From Escherichia phage T7, in sequence record MZ375271.1: 37,825 nucleotides of DNA; one strand, written 5' to 3'. Of the stretch, positions 369 to 37,527 are shown in pieces (position 1 is the stretch's first letter; each line of letters starts with the position of its first letter). The notes beneath the pieces are model-generated. The model was not told the DNA's origin and did no database searches. It saw only the letters and a list, made by a program, of their open reading frames with translations. Position numbers and translations under genes: made by a program.

Positions 369-391
369 TAATACAACTCACTATAGGGAGA
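369..391 (+). promoter_or_regulatory. T7 RNAP promoter phiOL
   Basis: taatacaactcactatagggaga, -17..+6, +1 at 386; -11 is A not G. Confidence 0.8.
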
Positions 392-2588: not shown

Positions 2589-5240
2589 ATGAACACGATT
2601 AACATCGCTAAGAACGACTTCTCTGACATCGAACTGGCTGCTATCCCGTTCAACACTCTGGCTGACCATTACGGTGAGCGTTTAGCTCGCGAACAGTTGG
2701 CCCTTGAGCATGAGTCTTACGAGATGGGTGAAGCACGCTTCCGCAAGATGTTTGAGCGTCAACTTAAAGCTGGTGAGGTTGCGGATAACGCTGCCGCCAA
2801 GCCTCTCATCACTACCCTACTCCCTAAGATGATTGCACGCATCAACGACTGGTTTGAGGAAGTGAAAGCTAAGCGCGGCAAGCGCCCGACAGCCTTCCAG
2901 TTCCTGCAAGAAATCAAGCCGGAAGCCGTAGCGTACATCACCATTAAGACCACTCTGGCTTGCCTAACCAGTGCTGACAATACAACCGTTCAGGCTGCAG
3001 CAAGCGCAATCGGTCGGGCCATTGAGGACGAGGCTCGCTTCGGTCGTATCCGTGACCTTGAAGCTAAGCACTTCAAGAAAAACGTTGAGGAACAACTCAA
3101 CAAGCGCGTAGGGCACGTCTACAAGAAAGCATTTATGCGAGTTGTCGAGGCTGACATGCTCTCTAAGGGTCTACTCGGTGGCGAGGCGTGGTCTTCGTGG
3201 CATAAGGAAGACTCTATTCATGTAGGAGTACGCTGCATCGAGATGCTCATTGAGTCAACCGGAATGGTTAGCTTACACCGCCAAAATGCTGGCGTAGTAG
3301 GTCAAGACTCTGAGACTATCGAACTCGCACCTGAATACGCTGAGGCTATCGCAACCCGTGCAGGTGCGCTGGCTGGCATCTCTCCGATGTTCCAACCTTG
3401 CGTAGTTCCTCCTAAGCCGTGGACTGGCATTACTGGTGGTGGCTATTGGGCTAACGGTCGTCGTCCTCTGGCGCTGGTGCGTACTCACAGTAAGAAAGCA
3501 CTGATGCGCTACGAAGACGTTTACATGCCTGAGGTGTACAAAGCGATTAACATTGCGCAAAACACCGCATGGAAAATCAACAAGAAAGTCCTAGCGGCCG
3601 CCAACGTAATCACCAAGTGGAAGCATTGTCCGGTCGAGGACATCCCTGCGATTGAGCGTGAAGAACTCCCGATGAAACCGGAAGACATCGACATGAATCC
3701 TGAGGCTCTCACCGCGTGGAAACGTGCTGCCGCTGCTGTGTACCGCAAGGACAAGGCTCGCAAGTCTCGCCGTATCAGCCTTGAGTTCATGCTTGAGCAA
3801 GCCAATAAGTTTGCTAACCATAAGGCCATCTGGTTCCCTTACAACATGGACTGGCGCGGTCGTGTTTACGCTGTGTCAATGTTCAACCCGCAAGGTAACG
3901 ATATGACCAAAGGACTGCTTACGCTGGCGAAAGGTAAACCAATCGGTAAGGAAGGTTACTACTGGCTGAAAATCCACGGTGCAAACTGTGCGGGTGTCGA
4001 TAAGGTTCCGTTCCCTGAGCGCATCAAGTTCATTGAGGAAAACCACGAGAACATCATGGCTTGCGCTAAGTCTCCACTGGAGAACACTTGGTGGGCTGAG
4101 CAAGATTCTCCGTTCTGCTTCCTTGCGTTCTGCTTTGAGTACGCTGGGGTACAGCACCACGGCCTGAGCTATAACTGCTCCCTTCCGCTGGCGTTTGACG
4201 GGTCTTGCTCTGGCATCCAGCACTTCTCCGCGATGCTCCGAGATGAGGTAGGTGGTCGCGCGGTTAACTTGCTTCCTAGTGAAACCGTTCAGGACATCTA
4301 CGGGATTGTTGCTAAGAAAGTCAACGAGATTCTACAAGCAGACGCAATCAATGGGACCGATAACGAAGTAGTTACCGTGACCGATGAGAACACTGGTGAA
4401 ATCTCTGAGAAAGTCAAGCTGGGCACTAAGGCACTGGCTGGTCAATGGCTGGCTTACGGTGTTACTCGCAGTGTGACTAAGCGTTCAGTCATGACGCTGG
4501 CTTACGGGTCCAAAGAGTTCGGCTTCCGTCAACAAGTGCTGGAAGATACCATTCAGCCAGCTATTGATTCCGGCAAGGGTCTGATGTTCACTCAGCCGAA
4601 TCAGGCTGCTGGATACATGGCTAAGCTGATTTGGGAATCTGTGAGCGTGACGGTGGTAGCTGCGGTTGAAGCAATGAACTGGCTTAAGTCTGCTGCTAAG
4701 CTGCTGGCTGCTGAGGTCAAAGATAAGAAGACTGGAGAGATTCTTCGCAAGCGTTGCGCTGTGCATTGGGTAACTCCTGATGGTTTCCCTGTGTGGCAGG
4801 AATACAAGAAGCCTATTCAGACGCGCTTGAACCTGATGTTCCTCGGTCAGTTCCGCTTACAGCCTACCATTAACACCAACAAAGATAGCGAGATTGATGC
4901 ACACAAACAGGAGTCTGGTATCGCTCCTAACTTTGTACACAGCCAAGACGGTAGCCACCTTCGTAAGACTGTAGTGTGGGCACACGAGAAGTACGGAATC
5001 GAATCTTTTGCACTGATTCACGACTCCTTCGGTACCATTCCGGCTGACGCTGCGAACCTGTTCAAAGCAGTGCGCGAAACTATGGTTGACACATATGAGT
5101 CTTGTGATGTACTGGCTGATTTCTACGACCAGTTCGCTGACCAGTTGCACGAGTCTCAATTGGACAAAATGCCAGCACTTCCGGCTAAAGGTAACTTGAA
5201 CCTCCGTGACATCTTAGAGTCGGACTTCGCGTTCGCGTAA
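2589..5240 (+). CDS. 1: T7 RNA polymerase (single-subunit DNA-directed RNA polymerase), 883 aa
   Basis: ORF-track 883 aa MNTINIAKNDFSDIELAAIPFNTLADHYGERLAREQL...ending FAFA; recognised sequence. Confidence 0.98.
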   Translation: MNTINIAKNDFSDIELAAIPFNTLADHYGERLAREQLALEHESYEMGEARFRKMFERQLKAGEVADNAAAKPLITTLLPKMIARINDWFEEVKAKRGKRPTAFQFLQEIKPEAVAYITIKTTLACLTSADNTTVQAAASAIGRAIEDEARFGRIRDLEAKHFKKNVEEQLNKRVGHVYKKAFMRVVEADMLSKGLLGGEAWSSWHKEDSIHVGVRCIEMLIESTGMVSLHRQNAGVVGQDSETIELAPEYAEAIATRAGALAGISPMFQPCVVPPKPWTGITGGGYWANGRRPLALVRTHSKKALMRYEDVYMPEVYKAINIAQNTAWKINKKVLAAANVITKWKHCPVEDIPAIEREELPMKPEDIDMNPEALTAWKRAAAAVYRKDKARKSRRISLEFMLEQANKFANHKAIWFPYNMDWRGRVYAVSMFNPQGNDMTKGLLTLAKGKPIGKEGYYWLKIHGANCAGVDKVPFPERIKFIEENHENIMACAKSPLENTWWAEQDSPFCFLAFCFEYAGVQHHGLSYNCSLPLAFDGSCSGIQHFSAMLRDEVGGRAVNLLPSETVQDIYGIVAKKVNEILQADAINGTDNEVVTVTDENTGEISEKVKLGTKALAGQWLAYGVTRSVTKRSVMTLAYGSKEFGFRQQVLEDTIQPAIDSGKGLMFTQPNQAAGYMAKLIWESVSVTVVAAVEAMNWLKSAAKLLAAEVKDKKTGEILRKRCAVHWVTPDGFPVWQEYKKPIQTRLNLMFLGQFRLQPTINTNKDSEIDAHKQESGIAPNFVHSQDGSHLRKTVVWAHEKYGIESFALIHDSFGTIPADAANLFKAVRETMVDTYESCDVLADFYDQFADQLHESQLDKMPALPAKGNLNLRDILESDFAFA

Positions 5241-9538: not shown

Positions 9539-9968
9539 AGGAATCCGAAAGGTTGGAGCGTTTCGCTCTGGCCTAGAGGACAAGGTTTCAAAGCAGTTGG
9601 AATCAAAAGGTATTAAATTCGAGTATGAAGAGTGGAAAGTGCCTTATGTAATTCCGGCGAGCAATCACACTTACACTCCAGACTTCTTACTTCCAAACGG
9701 TATATTCGTTGAGACAAAGGGTCTGTGGGAAAGCGATGATAGAAAGAAGCACTTATTAATTAGGGAGCAGCACCCCGAGCTAGACATCCGTATTGTCTTC
9801 TCAAGCTCACGTACTAAGTTATACAAAGGTTCTCCAACGTCTTATGGAGAGTTCTGCGAAAAGCATGGTATTAAGTTCGCTGATAAACTGATACCTGCTG
9901 AGTGGATAAAGGAACCCAAGAAGGAGGTCCCCTTTGATAGATTAAAAAGGAAAGGAGGAAAGAAATAA
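9519..9968 (+). CDS. 3: Endonuclease I (Holliday junction resolvase), 149 aa
   Basis: MAGYGAKGIRKVGAFRSGLEDKVSKQL...KRKGGKK; internal start within ORF-track 9471..9968, overlaps 2.8 3' end. Confidence 0.92.
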   Translation: MAGYGAKGIRKVGAFRSGLEDKVSKQLESKGIKFEYEEWKVPYVIPASNHTYTPDFLLPNGIFVETKGLWESDDRKKHLLIREQHPELDIRIVFSSSRTKLYKGSPTSYGEFCEKHGIKFADKLIPAEWIKEPKKEVPFDRLKRKGGKK

Positions 9969-16535: not shown

Positions 16536-16605
16536 AACTCAAGGTCCCTAAATTAATACGACTCACTATAGGGAGATAGGGGCCTTTACGATTATTACTT
16601 TAAGA
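16536..16605 (+). promoter_or_regulatory. RNase III processing hairpin R6.5 enclosing the phi6.5 promoter
   Basis: aactcaaggtccc...ggggcctttacgattattac flanking the promoter. Confidence 0.55.
16554..16576 (+). promoter_or_regulatory. T7 RNAP class III promoter phi6.5
   Basis: taatacgactcactatagggaga exact consensus, +1 at 16571. Confidence 0.9.
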
Positions 16606-18266: not shown

Positions 18267-19876
18267 TGGCTGAGAAACGAACAGGACTTGCGGAGGATGG
18301 CGCAAAGTCTGTCTATGAGCGTTTAAAGAACGACCGTGCTCCCTATGAGACACGCGCTCAGAATTGCGCTCAATATACCATCCCATCATTGTTCCCTAAG
18401 GACTCCGATAACGCCTCTACAGATTATCAAACTCCGTGGCAAGCCGTGGGCGCTCGTGGTCTGAACAATCTAGCCTCTAAGCTCATGCTGGCTCTATTCC
18501 CTATGCAGACTTGGATGCGACTTACTATATCTGAATATGAAGCAAAGCAGTTACTGAGCGACCCCGATGGACTCGCTAAGGTCGATGAGGGCCTCTCGAT
18601 GGTAGAGCGTATCATCATGAACTACATTGAGTCTAACAGTTACCGCGTGACTCTCTTTGAGGCTCTCAAACAGTTAGTCGTAGCTGGTAACGTCCTGCTG
18701 TACCTACCGGAACCGGAAGGGTCAAACTATAATCCCATGAAGCTGTACCGATTGTCTTCTTATGTGGTCCAACGAGACGCATTCGGCAACGTTCTGCAAA
18801 TGGTGACTCGTGACCAGATAGCTTTTGGTGCTCTCCCTGAGGACATCCGTAAGGCTGTAGAAGGTCAAGGTGGTGAGAAGAAAGCTGATGAGACAATCGA
18901 CGTGTACACTCACATCTATCTGGATGAGGACTCAGGTGAATACCTCCGATACGAAGAGGTCGAGGGTATGGAAGTCCAAGGCTCCGATGGGACTTATCCT
19001 AAAGAGGCTTGCCCATACATCCCGATTCGGATGGTCAGACTAGATGGTGAATCCTACGGTCGTTCGTACATTGAGGAATACTTAGGTGACTTACGGTCCC
19101 TTGAAAATCTCCAAGAGGCTATCGTCAAGATGTCCATGATTAGCTCTAAGGTTATCGGCTTAGTGAATCCTGCTGGTATCACCCAGCCACGCCGACTGAC
19201 CAAAGCTCAGACTGGTGACTTCGTTACTGGTCGTCCAGAAGACATCTCGTTCCTCCAACTGGAGAAGCAAGCAGACTTTACTGTAGCTAAAGCCGTAAGT
19301 GACGCTATCGAGGCTCGCCTTTCGTTTGCCTTTATGTTGAACTCTGCGGTTCAGCGTACAGGTGAACGTGTGACCGCCGAAGAGATTCGGTATGTAGCTT
19401 CTGAACTTGAAGATACTTTAGGTGGTGTCTACTCTATCCTTTCTCAAGAATTACAATTGCCTCTGGTACGAGTGCTCTTGAAGCAACTACAAGCCACGCA
19501 ACAGATTCCTGAGTTACCTAAGGAAGCCGTAGAGCCAACCATTAGTACAGGTCTGGAAGCAATTGGTCGAGGACAAGACCTTGATAAGCTGGAGCGGTGT
19601 GTCACTGCGTGGGCTGCACTGGCACCTATGCGGGACGACCCTGATATTAACCTTGCGATGATTAAGTTACGTATTGCCAACGCTATCGGTATTGACACTT
19701 CTGGTATTCTACTCACCGAAGAACAGAAGCAACAGAAGATGGCCCAACAGTCTATGCAAATGGGTATGGATAATGGTGCTGCTGCGCTGGCTCAAGGTAT
19801 GGCTGCACAAGCTACAGCTTCACCTGAGGCTATGGCTGCTGCCGCTGATTCCGTAGGTTTACAGCCGGGAATTTAA
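18266..19876 (+). CDS. 8: Portal (head-tail connector) protein gp8, 536 aa
   Basis: MAEKRTGLAEDGAKSVYERLKNDRAPYETRAQN...; in frame within ORF-track 18251..19876. Confidence 0.95.
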   Translation: MAEKRTGLAEDGAKSVYERLKNDRAPYETRAQNCAQYTIPSLFPKDSDNASTDYQTPWQAVGARGLNNLASKLMLALFPMQTWMRLTISEYEAKQLLSDPDGLAKVDEGLSMVERIIMNYIESNSYRVTLFEALKQLVVAGNVLLYLPEPEGSNYNPMKLYRLSSYVVQRDAFGNVLQMVTRDQIAFGALPEDIRKAVEGQGGEKKADETIDVYTHIYLDEDSGEYLRYEEVEGMEVQGSDGTYPKEACPYIPIRMVRLDGESYGRSYIEEYLGDLRSLENLQEAIVKMSMISSKVIGLVNPAGITQPRRLTKAQTGDFVTGRPEDISFLQLEKQADFTVAKAVSDAIEARLSFAFMLNSAVQRTGERVTAEEIRYVASELEDTLGGVYSILSQELQLPLVRVLLKQLQATQQIPELPKEAVEPTISTGLEAIGRGQDLDKLERCVTAWAALAPMRDDPDINLAMIKLRIANAIGIDTSGILLTEEQKQQKMAQQSMQMGMDNGAAALAQGMAAQATASPEAMAAAADSVGLQPGI

Positions 19877-19896
19877 TACGACTCACTATAGGGAGA
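19874..19896 (+). promoter_or_regulatory. T7 RNAP class III promoter phi9
   Basis: taatacgactcactatagggaga exact consensus, +1 at 19891. Confidence 0.9.
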
Positions 19897-19975: not shown

Positions 19976-20899
19976 ATGGCTGAATCTAATGCAGACGTAT
20001 ATGCATCTTTTGGCGTGAACTCCGCTGTGATGTCTGGTGGTTCCGTTGAGGAACATGAGCAGAACATGCTGGCTCTTGATGTTGCTGCCCGTGATGGCGA
20101 TGATGCAATCGAGTTAGCGTCAGACGAAGTGGAAACAGAACGTGACCTGTATGACAACTCTGACCCGTTCGGTCAAGAGGATGACGAAGGCCGCATTCAG
20201 GTTCGTATCGGTGATGGCTCTGAGCCGACCGATGTGGACACTGGAGAAGAAGGCGTTGAGGGCACCGAAGGTTCCGAAGAGTTTACCCCACTGGGCGAGA
20301 CTCCAGAAGAACTGGTAGCTGCCTCTGAGCAACTTGGTGAGCACGAAGAGGGCTTCCAAGAGATGATTAACATTGCTGCTGAGCGTGGCATGAGTGTCGA
20401 GACCATTGAGGCTATCCAGCGTGAGTACGAGGAGAACGAAGAGTTGTCCGCCGAGTCCTACGCTAAGCTGGCTGAAATTGGCTACACGAAGGCTTTCATT
20501 GACTCGTATATCCGTGGTCAAGAAGCTCTGGTGGAGCAGTACGTAAACAGTGTCATTGAGTACGCTGGTGGTCGTGAACGTTTTGATGCACTGTATAACC
20601 ACCTTGAGACGCACAACCCTGAGGCTGCACAGTCGCTGGATAATGCGTTGACCAATCGTGACTTAGCGACCGTTAAGGCTATCATCAACTTGGCTGGTGA
20701 GTCTCGCGCTAAGGCGTTCGGTCGTAAGCCAACTCGTAGTGTGACTAATCGTGCTATTCCGGCTAAACCTCAGGCTACCAAGCGTGAAGGCTTTGCGGAC
20801 CGTAGCGAGATGATTAAAGCTATGAGTGACCCTCGGTATCGCACAGATGCCAACTATCGTCGTCAAGTCGAACAGAAAGTAATCGATTCGAACTTCTGA
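19976..20899 (+). CDS. 9: Capsid scaffolding protein gp9, 307 aa
   Basis: ORF-track 307 aa MAESNADVYASFGVNSAVMSGGSVEEHEQNM...; acidic. Confidence 0.95.
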   Translation: MAESNADVYASFGVNSAVMSGGSVEEHEQNMLALDVAARDGDDAIELASDEVETERDLYDNSDPFGQEDDEGRIQVRIGDGSEPTDVDTGEEGVEGTEGSEEFTPLGETPEELVAASEQLGEHEEGFQEMINIAAERGMSVETIEAIQREYEENEELSAESYAKLAEIGYTKAFIDSYIRGQEALVEQYVNSVIEYAGGRERFDALYNHLETHNPEAAQSLDNALTNRDLATVKAIINLAGESRAKAFGRKPTRSVTNRAIPAKPQATKREGFADRSEMIKAMSDPRYRTDANYRRQVEQKVIDSNF

Positions 20900-20912
20900 T
20901 AGACTTCGAAAT

Positions 20913-20935
20913 TAATACGACTCACTATATGGAGA
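20913..20935 (+). promoter_or_regulatory. T7 RNAP class III promoter phi10 with T at +1
   Basis: taatacgactcactataTggaga; -17..-1 consensus, +1 (20930) is t where every other class III promoter in this window has g. Confidence 0.85.
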
Positions 20936-20992
20936 CCACAACGGTTTCCCTCTAGAAATAATTTTGTTTAACTTTAAGAAGGAGATATACAT

Positions 20993-22030
20993 ATGGCTAG
21001 CATGACTGGTGGACAGCAAATGGGTACTAACCAAGGTAAAGGTGTAGTTGCTGCTGGAGATAAACTGGCGTTGTTCTTGAAGGTATTTGGCGGTGAAGTC
21101 CTGACTGCGTTCGCTCGTACCTCCGTGACCACTTCTCGCCACATGGTACGTTCCATCTCCAGCGGTAAATCCGCTCAGTTCCCTGTTCTGGGTCGCACTC
21201 AGGCAGCGTATCTGGCTCCGGGCGAGAACCTCGACGATAAACGTAAGGACATCAAACACACCGAGAAGGTAATCACCATTGACGGTCTCCTGACGGCTGA
21301 CGTTCTGATTTATGATATTGAGGACGCGATGAACCACTACGACGTTCGCTCTGAGTATACCTCTCAGTTGGGTGAATCTCTGGCGATGGCTGCGGATGGT
21401 GCGGTTCTGGCTGAGATTGCCGGTCTGTGTAACGTGGAAAGCAAATATAATGAGAACATCGAGGGCTTAGGTACTGCTACCGTAATTGAGACCACTCAGA
21501 ACAAGGCCGCACTTACCGACCAAGTTGCGCTGGGTAAGGAGATTATTGCGGCTCTGACTAAGGCTCGTGCGGCTCTGACCAAGAACTATGTTCCGGCTGC
21601 TGACCGTGTGTTCTACTGTGACCCAGATAGCTACTCTGCGATTCTGGCAGCACTGATGCCGAACGCAGCAAACTACGCTGCTCTGATTGACCCTGAGAAG
21701 GGTTCTATCCGCAACGTTATGGGCTTTGAGGTTGTAGAAGTTCCGCACCTCACCGCTGGTGGTGCTGGTACCGCTCGTGAGGGCACTACTGGTCAGAAGC
21801 ACGTCTTCCCTGCCAATAAAGGTGAGGGTAATGTCAAGGTTGCTAAGGACAACGTTATCGGCCTGTTCATGCACCGCTCTGCGGTAGGTACTGTTAAGCT
21901 GCGTGACTTGGCTCTGGAGCGCGCTCGCCGTGCTAACTTCCAAGCGGACCAGATTATCGCTAAGTACGCAATGGGCCACGGTGGTCTTCGCCCAGAAGCT
22001 GCTGGTGCAGTGGTTTTCAAAGTGGAGTAA
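20993..22030 (+). CDS. 10A: Major capsid protein gp10A, 345 aa
   Basis: ORF-track 345 aa MASMTGGQQMGTNQGKGVVAAGDKLALFLK...AVVFKVE; RBS aaggag; recognised sequence. Confidence 0.98.
   Translation: MASMTGGQQMGTNQGKGVVAAGDKLALFLKVFGGEVLTAFARTSVTTSRHMVRSISSGKSAQFPVLGRTQAAYLAPGENLDDKRKDIKHTEKVITIDGLLTADVLIYDIEDAMNHYDVRSEYTSQLGESLAMAADGAVLAEIAGLCNVESKYNENIEGLGTATVIETTQNKAALTDQVALGKEIIAALTKARAALTKNYVPAADRVFYCDPDSYSAILAALMPNAANYAALIDPEKGSIRNVMGFEVVEVPHLTAGGAGTAREGTTGQKHVFPANKGEGNVKVAKDNVIGLFMHRSAVGTVKLRDLALERARRANFQADQIIAKYAMGHGGLRPEAAGAVVFKVE
22012..22018 (+). promoter_or_regulatory. Programmed -1 ribosomal frameshift slippery site for capsid 10B
   Basis: ggttttc heptamer 12 nt before the 10A stop; established T7 10A/10B frameshift. 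Confidence 0.6.
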
Positions 22031-22188: not shown

Positions 22189-22196
22189 CTAGCATA

Positions 22197-22236
22197 ACCC
22201 CTTGGGGCCTCTAAACGGGTCTTGAGGGGTTTTTTG
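22197..22236 (+). terminator. T7 RNAP terminator Tphi
   Basis: aaccccttggggcctctaaacgggtcttgaggggttttttg stem-loop plus U-run. Confidence 0.95.
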
Positions 22237-22253
22237 CTGAAAGGAGGAACTAT

Positions 22254-22867: not shown

Positions 22868-25252
22868 ATGGCACTCATTAGCCAATCAATCAAGAACTTG
22901 AAGGGTGGTATCAGCCAACAGCCTGACATCCTTCGTTATCCAGACCAAGGGTCACGCCAAGTTAACGGTTGGTCTTCGGAGACCGAGGGCCTCCAAAAGC
23001 GTCCACCTCTTGTTTTCTTAAATACACTTGGAGACAACGGTGCGTTAGGTCAAGCTCCGTACATCCACCTGATTAACCGAGATGAGCACGAACAGTATTA
23101 CGCTGTGTTCACTGGTAGCGGAATCCGAGTGTTCGACCTTTCTGGTAACGAGAAGCAAGTTAGGTATCCTAACGGTTCCAACTACATCAAGACCGCTAAT
23201 CCACGTAACGACCTGCGAATGGTTACTGTAGCAGACTATACGTTCATCGTTAACCGTAACGTTGTTGCACAGAAGAACACAAAGTCTGTCAACTTACCGA
23301 ATTACAACCCTAATCAAGACGGATTGATTAACGTTCGTGGTGGTCAGTATGGTAGGGAACTAATTGTACACATTAACGGTAAAGACGTTGCGAAGTATAA
23401 GATACCATATGGTAGTCAACCTGAACACGTAAACAATACGGATGCCCAATGGTTAGCTGAAGAGTTAGCCAAGCAGATGCGCACTAACTTGTCTGATTGG
23501 ACTGTAAATGTAGGGCAAGGGTTCATCCATGTGACCGCACCTAGTGGTCAACAGATTGACTCCTTCACGACTAAAGATGGCTACGCAGACCAGTTGATTA
23601 ACCCTGTGACCCACTACGCTCAGTCGTTCTCTAAGCTGCCACCTAATGCTCCTAACGGCTACATGGTGAAAATCGTAGGGGACGCCTCTAAGTCTGCCGA
23701 CCAGTATTACGTTCGGTATGACGCTGAGCGGAAAGTTTGGACTGAGACTTTAGGTTGGAACACTGAGGACCAAGTTCTATGGGAAACCATGCCACACGCT
23801 CTTGTGCGAGCCGCTGACGGTAATTTCGACTTCAAGTGGCTTGAGTGGTCTCCTAAGTCTTGTGGTGACGTTGACACCAACCCTTGGCCTTCTTTTGTTG
23901 GTTCAAGTATTAACGATGTGTTCTTCTTCCGTAACCGCTTAGGATTCCTTAGTGGGGAGAACATCATATTGAGTCGTACAGCCAAATACTTCAACTTCTA
24001 CCCTGCGTCCATTGCGAACCTTAGTGATGACGACCCTATAGACGCAGCTGTGAGTACCAACCGAATAGCAATCCTTAAGTACGCCGTTCCGTTCTCAGAA
24101 GAGTTACTCATCTGGTCCGATGAAGCACAATTCGTCCTGACTGCCTCGGGTACTCTCACATCTAAGTCGGTTGAGTTGAACCTAACGACCCAGTTTGACG
24201 TACAGGACCGAGCGAGACCTTTTGGGATTGGGCGTAATGTCTACTTTGCTAGTCCGAGGTCCAGCTTCACGTCCATCCACAGGTACTACGCTGTGCAGGA
24301 TGTCAGTTCCGTTAAGAATGCTGAGGACATTACATCACACGTTCCTAACTACATCCCTAATGGTGTGTTCAGTATTTGCGGAAGTGGTACGGAAAACTTC
24401 TGTTCGGTACTATCTCACGGGGACCCTAGTAAAATCTTCATGTACAAATTCCTGTACCTGAACGAAGAGTTAAGGCAACAGTCGTGGTCTCATTGGGACT
24501 TTGGGGAAAACGTACAGGTTCTAGCTTGTCAGAGTATCAGCTCAGATATGTATGTGATTCTTCGCAATGAGTTCAATACGTTCCTAGCTAGAATCTCTTT
24601 CACTAAGAACGCCATTGACTTACAGGGAGAACCCTATCGTGCCTTTATGGACATGAAGATTCGATACACGATTCCTAGTGGAACATACAACGATGACACA
24701 TTCACTACCTCTATTCATATTCCAACAATTTATGGTGCAAACTTCGGGAGGGGCAAAATCACTGTATTGGAGCCTGATGGTAAGATAACCGTGTTTGAGC
24801 AACCTACGGCTGGGTGGAATAGCGACCCTTGGCTGAGACTCAGCGGTAACTTGGAGGGACGCATGGTGTACATTGGGTTCAACATTAACTTCGTATATGA
24901 GTTCTCTAAGTTCCTCATCAAGCAGACTGCCGACGACGGGTCTACCTCCACGGAAGACATTGGGCGCTTACAGTTACGCCGAGCGTGGGTTAACTACGAG
25001 AACTCTGGTACGTTTGACATTTATGTTGAGAACCAATCGTCTAACTGGAAGTACACAATGGCTGGTGCCCGATTAGGCTCTAACACTCTGAGGGCTGGGA
25101 GACTGAACTTAGGGACCGGACAATATCGATTCCCTGTGGTTGGTAACGCCAAGTTCAACACTGTATACATCTTGTCAGATGAGACTACCCCTCTGAACAT
25201 CATTGGGTGTGGCTGGGAAGGTAACTACTTACGGAGAAGTTCCGGTATTTAA
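22868..25252 (+). CDS. 12: Tail tubular protein gp12, 794 aa
   Basis: ORF-track 794 aa MALISQSIKNLKGGISQQPDILRYPDQG... Confidence 0.95.
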   Translation: MALISQSIKNLKGGISQQPDILRYPDQGSRQVNGWSSETEGLQKRPPLVFLNTLGDNGALGQAPYIHLINRDEHEQYYAVFTGSGIRVFDLSGNEKQVRYPNGSNYIKTANPRNDLRMVTVADYTFIVNRNVVAQKNTKSVNLPNYNPNQDGLINVRGGQYGRELIVHINGKDVAKYKIPYGSQPEHVNNTDAQWLAEELAKQMRTNLSDWTVNVGQGFIHVTAPSGQQIDSFTTKDGYADQLINPVTHYAQSFSKLPPNAPNGYMVKIVGDASKSADQYYVRYDAERKVWTETLGWNTEDQVLWETMPHALVRAADGNFDFKWLEWSPKSCGDVDTNPWPSFVGSSINDVFFFRNRLGFLSGENIILSRTAKYFNFYPASIANLSDDDPIDAAVSTNRIAILKYAVPFSEELLIWSDEAQFVLTASGTLTSKSVELNLTTQFDVQDRARPFGIGRNVYFASPRSSFTSIHRYYAVQDVSSVKNAEDITSHVPNYIPNGVFSICGSGTENFCSVLSHGDPSKIFMYKFLYLNEELRQQSWSHWDFGENVQVLACQSISSDMYVILRNEFNTFLARISFTKNAIDLQGEPYRAFMDMKIRYTIPSGTYNDDTFTTSIHIPTIYGANFGRGKITVLEPDGKITVFEQPTAGWNSDPWLRLSGNLEGRMVYIGFNINFVYEFSKFLIKQTADDGSTSTEDIGRLQLRRAWVNYENSGTFDIYVENQSSNWKYTMAGARLGSNTLRAGRLNLGTGQYRFPVVGNAKFNTVYILSDETTPLNIIGCGWEGNYLRRSSGI

Positions 25253-26350: not shown

Positions 26351-28594
26351 ATGAGTAAAATTGAATCTGCCCTTCAAGCGGCACAACCGGGACTCTCTCG
26401 GTTACGTGGTGGTGCTGGAGGTATGGGCTATCGTGCAGCAACCACTCAGGCCGAACAGCCAAGGTCAAGCCTATTGGACACCATTGGTCGGTTCGCTAAG
26501 GCTGGTGCCGATATGTATACCGCTAAGGAACAACGAGCACGAGACCTAGCTGATGAACGCTCTAACGAGATTATCCGTAAGCTGACCCCTGAGCAACGTC
26601 GAGAAGCTCTCAACAACGGGACCCTTCTGTATCAGGATGACCCATACGCTATGGAAGCACTCCGAGTCAAGACTGGTCGTAACGCTGCGTATCTTGTGGA
26701 CGATGACGTTATGCAGAAGATAAAAGAGGGTGTCTTCCGTACTCGCGAAGAGATGGAAGAGTATCGCCATAGTCGCCTTCAAGAGGGCGCTAAGGTATAC
26801 GCTGAGCAGTTCGGCATCGACCCTGAGGACGTTGATTATCAGCGTGGTTTCAACGGGGACATTACCGAGCGTAACATCTCGCTGTATGGTGCGCATGATA
26901 ACTTCTTGAGCCAGCAAGCTCAGAAGGGCGCTATCATGAACAGCCGAGTGGAACTCAACGGTGTCCTTCAAGACCCTGATATGCTGCGTCGTCCAGACTC
27001 TGCTGACTTCTTTGAGAAGTATATCGACAACGGTCTGGTTACTGGCGCAATCCCATCTGATGCTCAAGCCACACAGCTTATAAGCCAAGCGTTCAGTGAC
27101 GCTTCTAGCCGTGCTGGTGGTGCTGACTTCCTGATGCGAGTCGGTGACAAGAAGGTAACACTTAACGGAGCCACTACGACTTACCGAGAGTTGATTGGTG
27201 AGGAACAGTGGAACGCTCTCATGGTCACAGCACAACGTTCTCAGTTTGAGACTGACGCGAAGCTGAACGAGCAGTATCGCTTGAAGATTAACTCTGCGCT
27301 GAACCAAGAGGACCCAAGGACAGCTTGGGAGATGCTTCAAGGTATCAAGGCTGAACTAGATAAGGTCCAACCTGATGAGCAGATGACACCACAACGTGAG
27401 TGGCTAATCTCCGCACAGGAACAAGTTCAGAATCAGATGAACGCATGGACGAAAGCTCAGGCCAAGGCTCTGGACGATTCCATGAAGTCAATGAACAAAC
27501 TTGACGTAATCGACAAGCAATTCCAGAAGCGAATCAACGGTGAGTGGGTCTCAACGGATTTTAAGGATATGCCAGTCAACGAGAACACTGGTGAGTTCAA
27601 GCATAGCGATATGGTTAACTACGCCAATAAGAAGCTCGCTGAGATTGACAGTATGGACATTCCAGACGGTGCCAAGGATGCTATGAAGTTGAAGTACCTT
27701 CAAGCGGACTCTAAGGACGGAGCATTCCGTACAGCCATCGGAACCATGGTCACTGACGCTGGTCAAGAGTGGTCTGCCGCTGTGATTAACGGTAAGTTAC
27801 CAGAACGAACCCCAGCTATGGATGCTCTGCGCAGAATCCGCAATGCTGACCCTCAGTTGATTGCTGCGCTATACCCAGACCAAGCTGAGCTATTCCTGAC
27901 GATGGACATGATGGACAAGCAGGGTATTGACCCTCAGGTTATTCTTGATGCCGACCGACTGACTGTTAAGCGGTCCAAAGAGCAACGCTTTGAGGATGAT
28001 AAAGCATTCGAGTCTGCACTGAATGCATCTAAGGCTCCTGAGATTGCCCGTATGCCAGCGTCACTGCGCGAATCTGCACGTAAGATTTATGACTCCGTTA
28101 AGTATCGCTCGGGGAACGAAAGCATGGCTATGGAGCAGATGACCAAGTTCCTTAAGGAATCTACCTACACGTTCACTGGTGATGATGTTGACGGTGATAC
28201 CGTTGGTGTGATTCCTAAGAATATGATGCAGGTTAACTCTGACCCGAAATCATGGGAGCAAGGTCGGGATATTCTGGAGGAAGCACGTAAGGGAATCATT
28301 GCGAGCAACCCTTGGATAACCAATAAGCAACTGACCATGTATTCTCAAGGTGACTCCATTTACCTTATGGACACCACAGGTCAAGTCAGAGTCCGATACG
28401 ACAAAGAGTTACTCTCGAAGGTCTGGAGTGAGAACCAGAAGAAACTCGAAGAGAAAGCTCGTGAGAAGGCTCTGGCTGATGTGAACAAGCGAGCACCTAT
28501 AGTTGCCGCTACGAAGGCCCGTGAAGCTGCTGCTAAACGAGTCCGAGAGAAACGTAAACAGACTCCTAAGTTCATCTACGGACGTAAGGAGTAA
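26351..28594 (+). CDS. 15: Internal core protein gp15, 747 aa
   Basis: ORF-track 747 aa MSKIESALQAAQPGLSRLRGGAGGMGYRAATTQ... Confidence 0.95.
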   Translation: MSKIESALQAAQPGLSRLRGGAGGMGYRAATTQAEQPRSSLLDTIGRFAKAGADMYTAKEQRARDLADERSNEIIRKLTPEQRREALNNGTLLYQDDPYAMEALRVKTGRNAAYLVDDDVMQKIKEGVFRTREEMEEYRHSRLQEGAKVYAEQFGIDPEDVDYQRGFNGDITERNISLYGAHDNFLSQQAQKGAIMNSRVELNGVLQDPDMLRRPDSADFFEKYIDNGLVTGAIPSDAQATQLISQAFSDASSRAGGADFLMRVGDKKVTLNGATTTYRELIGEEQWNALMVTAQRSQFETDAKLNEQYRLKINSALNQEDPRTAWEMLQGIKAELDKVQPDEQMTPQREWLISAQEQVQNQMNAWTKAQAKALDDSMKSMNKLDVIDKQFQKRINGEWVSTDFKDMPVNENTGEFKHSDMVNYANKKLAEIDSMDIPDGAKDAMKLKYLQADSKDGAFRTAIGTMVTDAGQEWSAAVINGKLPERTPAMDALRRIRNADPQLIAALYPDQAELFLTMDMMDKQGIDPQVILDADRLTVKRSKEQRFEDDKAFESALNASKAPEIARMPASLRESARKIYDSVKYRSGNESMAMEQMTKFLKESTYTFTGDDVDGDTVGVIPKNMMQVNSDPKSWEQGRDILEEARKGIIASNPWITNKQLTMYSQGDSIYLMDTTGQVRVRYDKELLSKVWSENQKKLEEKAREKALADVNKRAPIVAATKAREAAAKRVREKRKQTPKFIYGRKE

Positions 28595-37462: not shown

Positions 37463-37527
37463 GGTATACCCATAAAGAGCCTCTAATGGTCTATACTAAG
37501 GTCTATACCTAAAGATAGGCCAGTGTC
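37448..37527. repeat. Right-end short direct repeats (cctaaag / ctaaggt type) preceding the right terminal repeat
   Basis: cctaaggtatacccataaagag...ctaaggtctatacctaaagatagg...cacctaaagagg visible by eye. Confidence 0.6.

Follow-up and report, generated by a model that had tools for sequence, protein, structure and literature searches.

The phi10 promoter is the promoter of T7's most abundant protein and of the pET expression systems, and in the genome considered here it has T instead of G at its first transcribed position. The question raised by this locus is whether the T is a real mutation and, if it is, how a replicating phage came to carry it. The window (the whole stretch of DNA analysed, 37,825 nucleotides of Escherichia phage T7, MZ375271.1) reads TAATACGACTCACTATATGGAGA at positions 20913-20935 on the plus strand, which correspond to T7 nt 22887-22909 and to promoter positions -17 to +6. 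An earlier note on this DNA had taken the element for phi10 and the altered base for +1. Both assignments are confirmed by whole-genome alignment to V01146 and by the annotation of that record: window 20930 is homologous to T7 nt 22904, which is annotated as 'T7 promoter phi10' and lies between gene 9 and gene 10A. The base is T in the window and G in the reference (G22904T), which removes the possibility that the reference phi10 itself has a T. It is the only mismatch to the class III consensus. Positions -17 to -1, the polymerase-binding and melting region, match TAATACGACTCACTATA exactly (20913-20929) and positions +2 to +6 read GGAGA as required (20931-20935); the initiating G at +1 is absent.

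A scan with the class III consensus, allowing up to three mismatches, found ten T7-type promoter matches in the window compared with 0.00 expected by chance. The perfect-consensus promoters start at 16554 (phi6.5), 19874 (phi9), 25283 (phi13), 32575 (phi17) and 37238 (phiOR), in agreement with the earlier note, which overlooked phiOL. The latter (369-391, plus strand; T7 nt 388-410) now also contains TATAGGGAGA, owing to its own A to G change at +1 (386; T7 nt 405). The cognate T7 RNA polymerase is encoded in the same genome by gene 1 (2589-5240, plus strand). The intact phi9 promoter (19874-19896, plus strand) is the upstream source of gene 9-10 read-through transcripts and backs up phi10. 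Gene 9, encoding the scaffolding protein, is located between the two promoters (19976-20899, plus strand), and gene 10A, encoding the major capsid protein and served by phi10, occupies 20993-22030 on the plus strand, with coordinates taken from the collinear sibling record 220L and the position of the ATG. The coding sequence of 10A is unchanged, with no window substitution between T7 nt 22905 and 24684; the whole interval between T7 nt 19607 and 24685 has no other window substitution than the phi10 T. Tphi, the only T7 terminator, is placed after gene 10 (22192-22239, plus strand; T7 nt 24166-24213 minus an offset of 1974 bases).

The claim that G at +1 is the rule is borne out by natural promoters. 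Among 100 consensus-type sequences in IMG/VR with the pattern TAATACGACTCACTATA-N-GGAGA, the variable position is G in 98 and A in two, and never T or C; both copies with A are phiOL-like. The 17 T7 promoters likewise include none with T, or indeed any pyrimidine, at +1. The substitution in phi10 is therefore untemplated, and gene conversion from another promoter copy is rejected as its source; such conversion could account for the -11 G<->A and phiOL changes described below. Wild-type phi10 has the same locus, the same bases at -17 to -1 and +2 to +6, the same leader, Shine-Dalgarno sequence and downstream gene, and differs in having G, not T, at +1. The phi2.5 and wild-type phiOL promoters are functional T7 RNA polymerase promoters that share with the window phi10 a base other than G (A) at the annotated +1, but they start with a purine and the window phi10 with a pyrimidine.

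The records nearest to the window form a GenBank run, MZ375233-MZ375294 ('Mutant Escherichia phage T7 clone T7_10L ... T7_300S'), with 210L and 220L as the nearest of all. They stem from the CiPGr experiment on genome reduction (Yuan et al. 2022, NAR 50:13183, PMC9825161), and the window is probably its clone T7_200L. Whole T7 populations were there passaged 300 times, with E. coli MG1655 as a host that contained Cas9, lambda Red and plasmids with a library of guides and deletion templates. At each transfer 1 ml of lysate was added to 1e9 cells, and populations were re-expanded whenever the titre fell below 1e5 PFU/ml (PMC9825161). Every ten transfers two clones picked for extreme killing phenotypes were sequenced, one forming large plaques (L) and the other small plaques (S) (PMC9825161); clone counts are thus a crude proxy for allele frequency, since each time point is represented by only two non-randomly chosen clones. 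In the accession series odd numbers belong to L clones and even numbers to S clones, with two accessions for each ten transfers, as verified for ten records (233, 251, 253, 257, 259, 275, 276, 278, 281 and 291); MZ375271 would by this order be T7_200L. Seven internal deletions separate the window from wild type (genes 0.4-0.6, 1.4, 3.8, 4.3, 4.7 and 5.3 and 180 bp close to the right end), along with about 35 substitutions and small losses within the end repeats.

The T allele is widespread in this series. Over 20813-21032 (220 bp) no difference separates the window from 31 records, all with T, and 160L, 230S and 250L have T together with another nearby change. This gives phi10 +1T in 35 of the 39 genomes from transfers 120-300 (the window and 34 siblings), the genomes without it being 140L, 150L, 170L and 220S. 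G was read at T7 nt 22904 in clones 10L, 100L, 100L.2 and 110L, as in the T7 reference, and the other early records, 110S left out, differ from the window at one base in 220, the same as the reference does. All four clones of transfers 120-130 have T. The allele arose de novo during the experiment, between transfers 110 and 120, and the G lineage was still present until at least transfer 220.

The phi10 substitution is not the only promoter mutation of this lineage. Alignment of 20 genomes (window included) to V01146 gave 128 distinct substitutions. The 17 T7 promoters together cover 391 bp and received six of these (1.35 expected, binomial P=2.5e-3), and all six are found in the strong class III/OL/OR set, a set of 161 bp chosen after seeing the data (expected 0.56, P=2.3e-5). 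They are phiOL +1 A>G, phiOL -11 A>G, phi9 -6 A>G, phi10 +1 G>T, phi10 -11 G>A and phi13 -11 G>A. The enrichment rests partly on the -11 G<->A changes, which were neutral in two in vitro studies (PMC7948468) and may be gene conversions between promoter copies. The phi6.5, phi17 and phiOR promoters are unmutated in every genome that covers them.

The phiOL +1 A>G change is missing in 10L and found in all 19 later genomes compared, including every one from transfer 100. Its direction is up, because the reverse change in a consensus promoter, +1 G>A, scores about 40% of wild type (Komura 2018). Clones 150L, 160L and 170L have in addition phiOL -11 A>G (T7 nt 394), resulting in a perfect 23/23 consensus. 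The phi9 -6 A>G substitution (TAATACGACTCGCTATA; T7 nt 21859, position 19765 in one sibling) was found in 100L.2, 140L, 150L, 170L, T7_5t1 and OL964740, the last two being clones of the authors' screen on a plasmid-free host (PMC9825161). It never occurs together with phi10 +1T and marks a competing lineage. In 250L a phi10 -11 G>A change (position 20297; T7 nt 22893) was added on top of +1T. The base before the gene 10 AUG is changed by T22966C (CATATG to CACATG) in 170L, 220S (19802), 230S (20044) and 250L (20370). Clone 220S is the sole aligned genome from transfer 120 on that lacks both phi9 -6G and phi10 +1T; with wild-type phi9 and phi10, it carries T22966C instead, together with phi13 mutations, namely -11 G>A and an inserted G at +7 (24099 and 24116; T7 nt 27263 and 27280). 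Phi10 +1T is one of several mutations that, in the same experiment, cluster in promoters and leader near genes 9 and 10.

The effect of the substitution on transcription can be judged from synthetic promoters. The earlier note expected lower initiation or a shift of the start to the G at +2, and this agrees with published in vitro data (Komura 2018; PMC7948468). In the accessible part of the S2 file of Komura 2018 (double-stranded templates, RNA/DNA read ratio) wild type scores 176-188, with a stated mean of 169, and the +1 G>T variant TAATACGACTCACTATATG comes out at 13.8, roughly 8% of the wild-type value. This variant agrees with the window phi10 over its first 19 bases, and the library primers likewise continue with GGAGA. 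In the same part of the file -6 A>G scores 46-49 (about 28%) and +1 G>A 68 (about 40%). A scan with a Broccoli reporter found high output for C or T at +1 on hybrid and double-stranded templates alike (PMC7948468), and the loss of phi10 output could therefore be small. PMC7948468, citing Imburgio 2000, explains this high output by a start that C or T at +1 shifts from +1 to +2. The two sets of results conflict in magnitude and both fit a polymerase that demands GTP. Because the binding region of phi10 is intact, the effect should fall on initiation. The synthetic variants (Komura 2018; Imburgio 2000 in PMC7948468) resemble phi10 +1T in the altered base and show reduced output and/or a start at +2 on in vitro templates; phi10 +1T differs from them in that it arose spontaneously and was maintained in replicating phage.

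The leader RNA would also be altered. The DNA for the 5'-terminal stem-loop of the phi10 transcript (gene 10 leader) lies at 20930-20950 on the plus strand and loses the closing G1-C21 pair. The wild-type stem has 8 bp and -13.4 kcal/mol according to ViennaRNA, and a transcript starting with U at +1 or at +2 has 7 bp and -9.7 kcal/mol. No new sigma-70 promoter or terminator resulting from the G to T change was predicted, in either the mutant or the wild-type sequence. The trinucleotide A(-1)T(+1)G(+2) could form an upstream AUG; it would be present in read-through transcripts only, with an open reading frame of eight codons and no Shine-Dalgarno sequence, and was judged insignificant by its sequence. 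A compensating change in Tphi was considered as well. It was rejected, since Tphi has the reference sequence in the window, as it does in 18 of 19 siblings examined.

A weakened phi10 is expected to be tolerated. Complete knockout of phi10 in T7 gave a non-significant loss of fitness (P=0.0749; Paff et al. 2018, PMC6068830), and costs the phage little because read-through from phi9 also transcribes gene 10. Single knockouts of phi9 or phi10 had a similar drop in gene 10A mRNA, and the double knockout alone removed 84-86% of it (PMC6068830). On fast-growing hosts the loss of phi10 from wild-type T7 was mildly costly, not beneficial (PMC6068830), so any benefit of +1T must be specific to the regime. 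The knockouts and phi10 +1T have in common a reduced transcription specific to the scaffold and capsid genes, for +1T an expected one, in a phage that is viable through read-through. They differ in that 18-23 bp were replaced in the knockouts, abolishing the promoter by design, with mildly deleterious results on fast-growing hosts, while phi10 +1T is a single evolved base that, to judge from the promoter sequence, leaves polymerase binding intact.

The T is a genuine heritable G to T transversion of phi10. Taken together, these observations make it probable that it is a hypomorphic change with a shifted start, buffered by phi9 and raised by selection for lower transcription from phi9 and phi10. 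T7 RNA polymerase would bind phi10 normally, since -17 to -5 is intact. With the GTP start at +1 lost, fewer transcripts would be started and/or the start would move one base downstream to the G at +2, as in the in vitro work. The transcript would then begin with GGAGA or UGGAGA, and its protective 5' stem-loop would be one G-C pair shorter. Transcription from the intact phi9, some 1 kb upstream, and from more distant upstream promoters would read through to Tphi and so keep gene 10 well expressed. The net result would be a moderate drop, not a loss, of capsid mRNA and of the mRNA of the promoter-less genes 11-12. The allele may have risen because lower transcription driven by phi9 and phi10 was favoured in the regime, that is, in dense overnight MG1655 cultures with Cas9 and lambda Red and in a genome-reduced phage with an altered RNA polymerase, and would then be one of several retunings by T7 of its own promoters. 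Among the origins that the earlier note had offered without choosing, a real attenuating change fits best.

A passenger origin is a serious alternative and the one that deserves most attention, though we consider it the less likely. The T would here be neutral or mildly deleterious, phi10 being largely redundant through phi9, and would have risen together with a deletion or point mutation that escapes Cas9, or through a bottleneck, and persisted under weak counter-selection. The small, non-significant cost of the full phi10 knockout is in accordance with this, and escape from Cas9 is the dominant selection in CiPGr. Re-expansion of a population from below 1e5 PFU/ml could lift a near-neutral allele to high frequency, and the rise was abrupt, from absence in the directly read clones up to transfer 110 to all of those at transfers 120-130. 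Deleterious changes did accumulate in the experiment, as shown by the burst size of 2.1 compared with 143 for wild type in T7_300L, which carries +1T.

The linkage data argue against a passenger. A substitution tightly linked to phi10 +1T was sought across 19 genomes and none had an r2 above 0.46. This maximum is shared by phi9 -6G, the strongest negative associate (in repulsion), and V137A of gene 1, the strongest positive associate, which is 19 kb away. T and G at phi10 +1 are each found with both 26019C and 26243G, which shows recombination within 3 kb. All four combinations of alleles at 22904 and 22966, sites only 62 bp apart, are present as well, implying recombination or recurrent mutation. 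The haplotype matrix is reticulate and the backgrounds of +1T are recombinant. The long co-existence of the G lineage speaks against a complete bottleneck, and the independent down-mutation in phi9 marks a competing lineage that was never combined with +1T. Promoter substitutions are moreover over-represented. A rise from undetected to about 90% of the clones is unlikely for a neutral allele with no linked driver and with large transfers, which favours direct selection. In the smallest-genome mutant, passaged for 12 more transfers on the plain host, one new T7 mutation was reported, gp17 N158D (PMC9825161); no reversion of phi10 +1T is thus reported there, which we count in favour of a selected hypomorph.

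Co-adaptation with the RNA polymerase is an improbable explanation. According to this, initiation or the preference among promoters is altered by Q184R and later by V137A, with the phi10 change as compensation, or the other way round. Gene 1 of the window has V137A, Q184R and V337A (T7 nt 3580, 3721 and 4180). Q184R predates the T, being present in every genome compared from transfer 100 on; V137A, found from transfer 160 on, is the strongest positive associate of the T; and V337A was found in the window only, among the genomes compared. The phi9/phi10 knockout lines also gained RNA polymerase substitutions. The association is weak, however, as 120L and 120S have the T but not V137A, and 220S has V137A but not the T. 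Gene 1 is not enriched in substitutions, with 12 of the 128 in about 7% of the genome. To our knowledge neither residue 137 nor residue 184 of T7 RNA polymerase is a promoter or initiating-nucleotide contact, which also counts against co-adaptation.

Escape from a CRISPR guide is more improbable still. A library or off-target guide would have cut near phi10, and the G to T change would destroy the AGG PAM of AAATTAATACGACTCACTAT or cause a mismatch to TCACTATAGGGAGACCACAA (PAM CGG). Position +1 is the second base of the PAM of one of these candidate protospacers and lies 12 nt from the PAM of the other, the phi9 -6 and phi10 -11 changes fall within the seed of equivalent protospacers embedded in promoters, and 23.5% of the T7 point mutations were located in spacer or PAM regions (PMC9825161). 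The guides were designed on genes, however, as indicated by clone deletions that follow standard gene boundaries, and known essential genes were left out of the spacer design (PMC9825161), and the site is intergenic between the essential genes 9 and 10A. The seed of AAATTAATACGACTCACTAT with its PAM is found at eight T7 promoters, yet phi6.5, phi17 and phiOR are pristine where covered, and phiOL moves towards the same consensus and acquires an AGG PAM in that register. The AGG of the candidate becomes ATG, but a TGG PAM persists one base downstream.

An artefact of sequencing or assembly, conceivable because this 23-bp promoter is one of several identical copies in the genome, or the base-call error suggested in the earlier note, is refuted and has practically no probability, since the same T was obtained in 34 siblings that were isolated and sequenced independently (35 genomes with the window), is absent in the early clones and segregates with recombinant haplotypes.

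Selection of a weakened, phi9-buffered phi10 can be placed in a wider frame. A broader reading, tentative and somewhat short of probable, is that T7 repeatedly retuned its hierarchy of polymerase and promoters by selection under Cas9 and lambda Red: first by weakening the promoters of the scaffold and capsid genes through the mutually exclusive alleles phi9 -6G and phi10 +1T, later through phi10 -11A with the change next to the gene 10 AUG, and at phiOL stepwise towards the consensus. If this is true, wild-type capsid transcription lies above the optimum in this regime, and the pyrimidine start is an adaptive hypomorph and not damage. Part of the 70-fold loss in burst size would then be due to regulatory point mutations and not to gene deletions. 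The authors ascribe the fall from 143 to 2.1 in T7_300L to gene loss (PMC9825161). This clone carries phi10 +1T, gene 2.5 E193* and RNA polymerase changes, and no individual discussion of its regulatory or nonsense point mutations was found in the accessible part of the main text of PMC9825161. Regulatory point mutations may contribute to the losses of fitness and burst size in CiPGr. The 'minimal' T7 genomes of that experiment are not pure deletion derivatives, as they also have point mutations in promoters, in the gene 10 leader and in the RNA polymerase.

The kind of promoter and the qualitative effect of changes at +1 are already known. That +1T persisted in a phage that replicates, and that several promoters were hit in parallel, appears to be unreported so far; in the main text of PMC9825161 the word 'promoter' refers to the guide cassette or stands in a cited title, and is found nowhere else. 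A literature search for T7 position 22904 gave unrelated matches only. A pyrimidine start was kept for about 180 serial transfers in a promoter of this importance, which suggests slack from the redundant arrangement of phi9 and phi10. The apparent parallel hits in these two promoters offer a testable case for capsid-gene transcription tuned by selection in this regime.

Some further changes in these genomes are of a different kind. The window has an 18-bp deletion near the left end (at 98; T7 nt 99-116) and an 8-bp deletion near the right end (at 37521; T7 nt 39684-39691), and neither matches a targeted gene. In clone T7_300L, alone among the clones, the C-run in the 5' arm of the Tphi hairpin is one C longer (about position 21700; T7 nt 24172), possibly through a homopolymer sequencing error; abortive G-rich phi10 transcripts have been reported to anneal to this C+U stretch (PMC2952870). 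Gene 7.3 has three substitutions within 37 bp, at window 17597, 17598 and 17633 (T7 nt 19571, 19572 and 19607; T13P/T13I and R25S), two of which are found in every genome compared from transfer 100 on; this cluster looks like CRISPR escape in a gene that was targeted and is undeletable. The nonsense mutation E193* in gene 2.5 (T7 nt 9734), found in 250L and 300L, cuts the acidic C-terminal tail of the single-stranded DNA-binding protein, and is surprising since this tail is considered important for interactions in the replisome.
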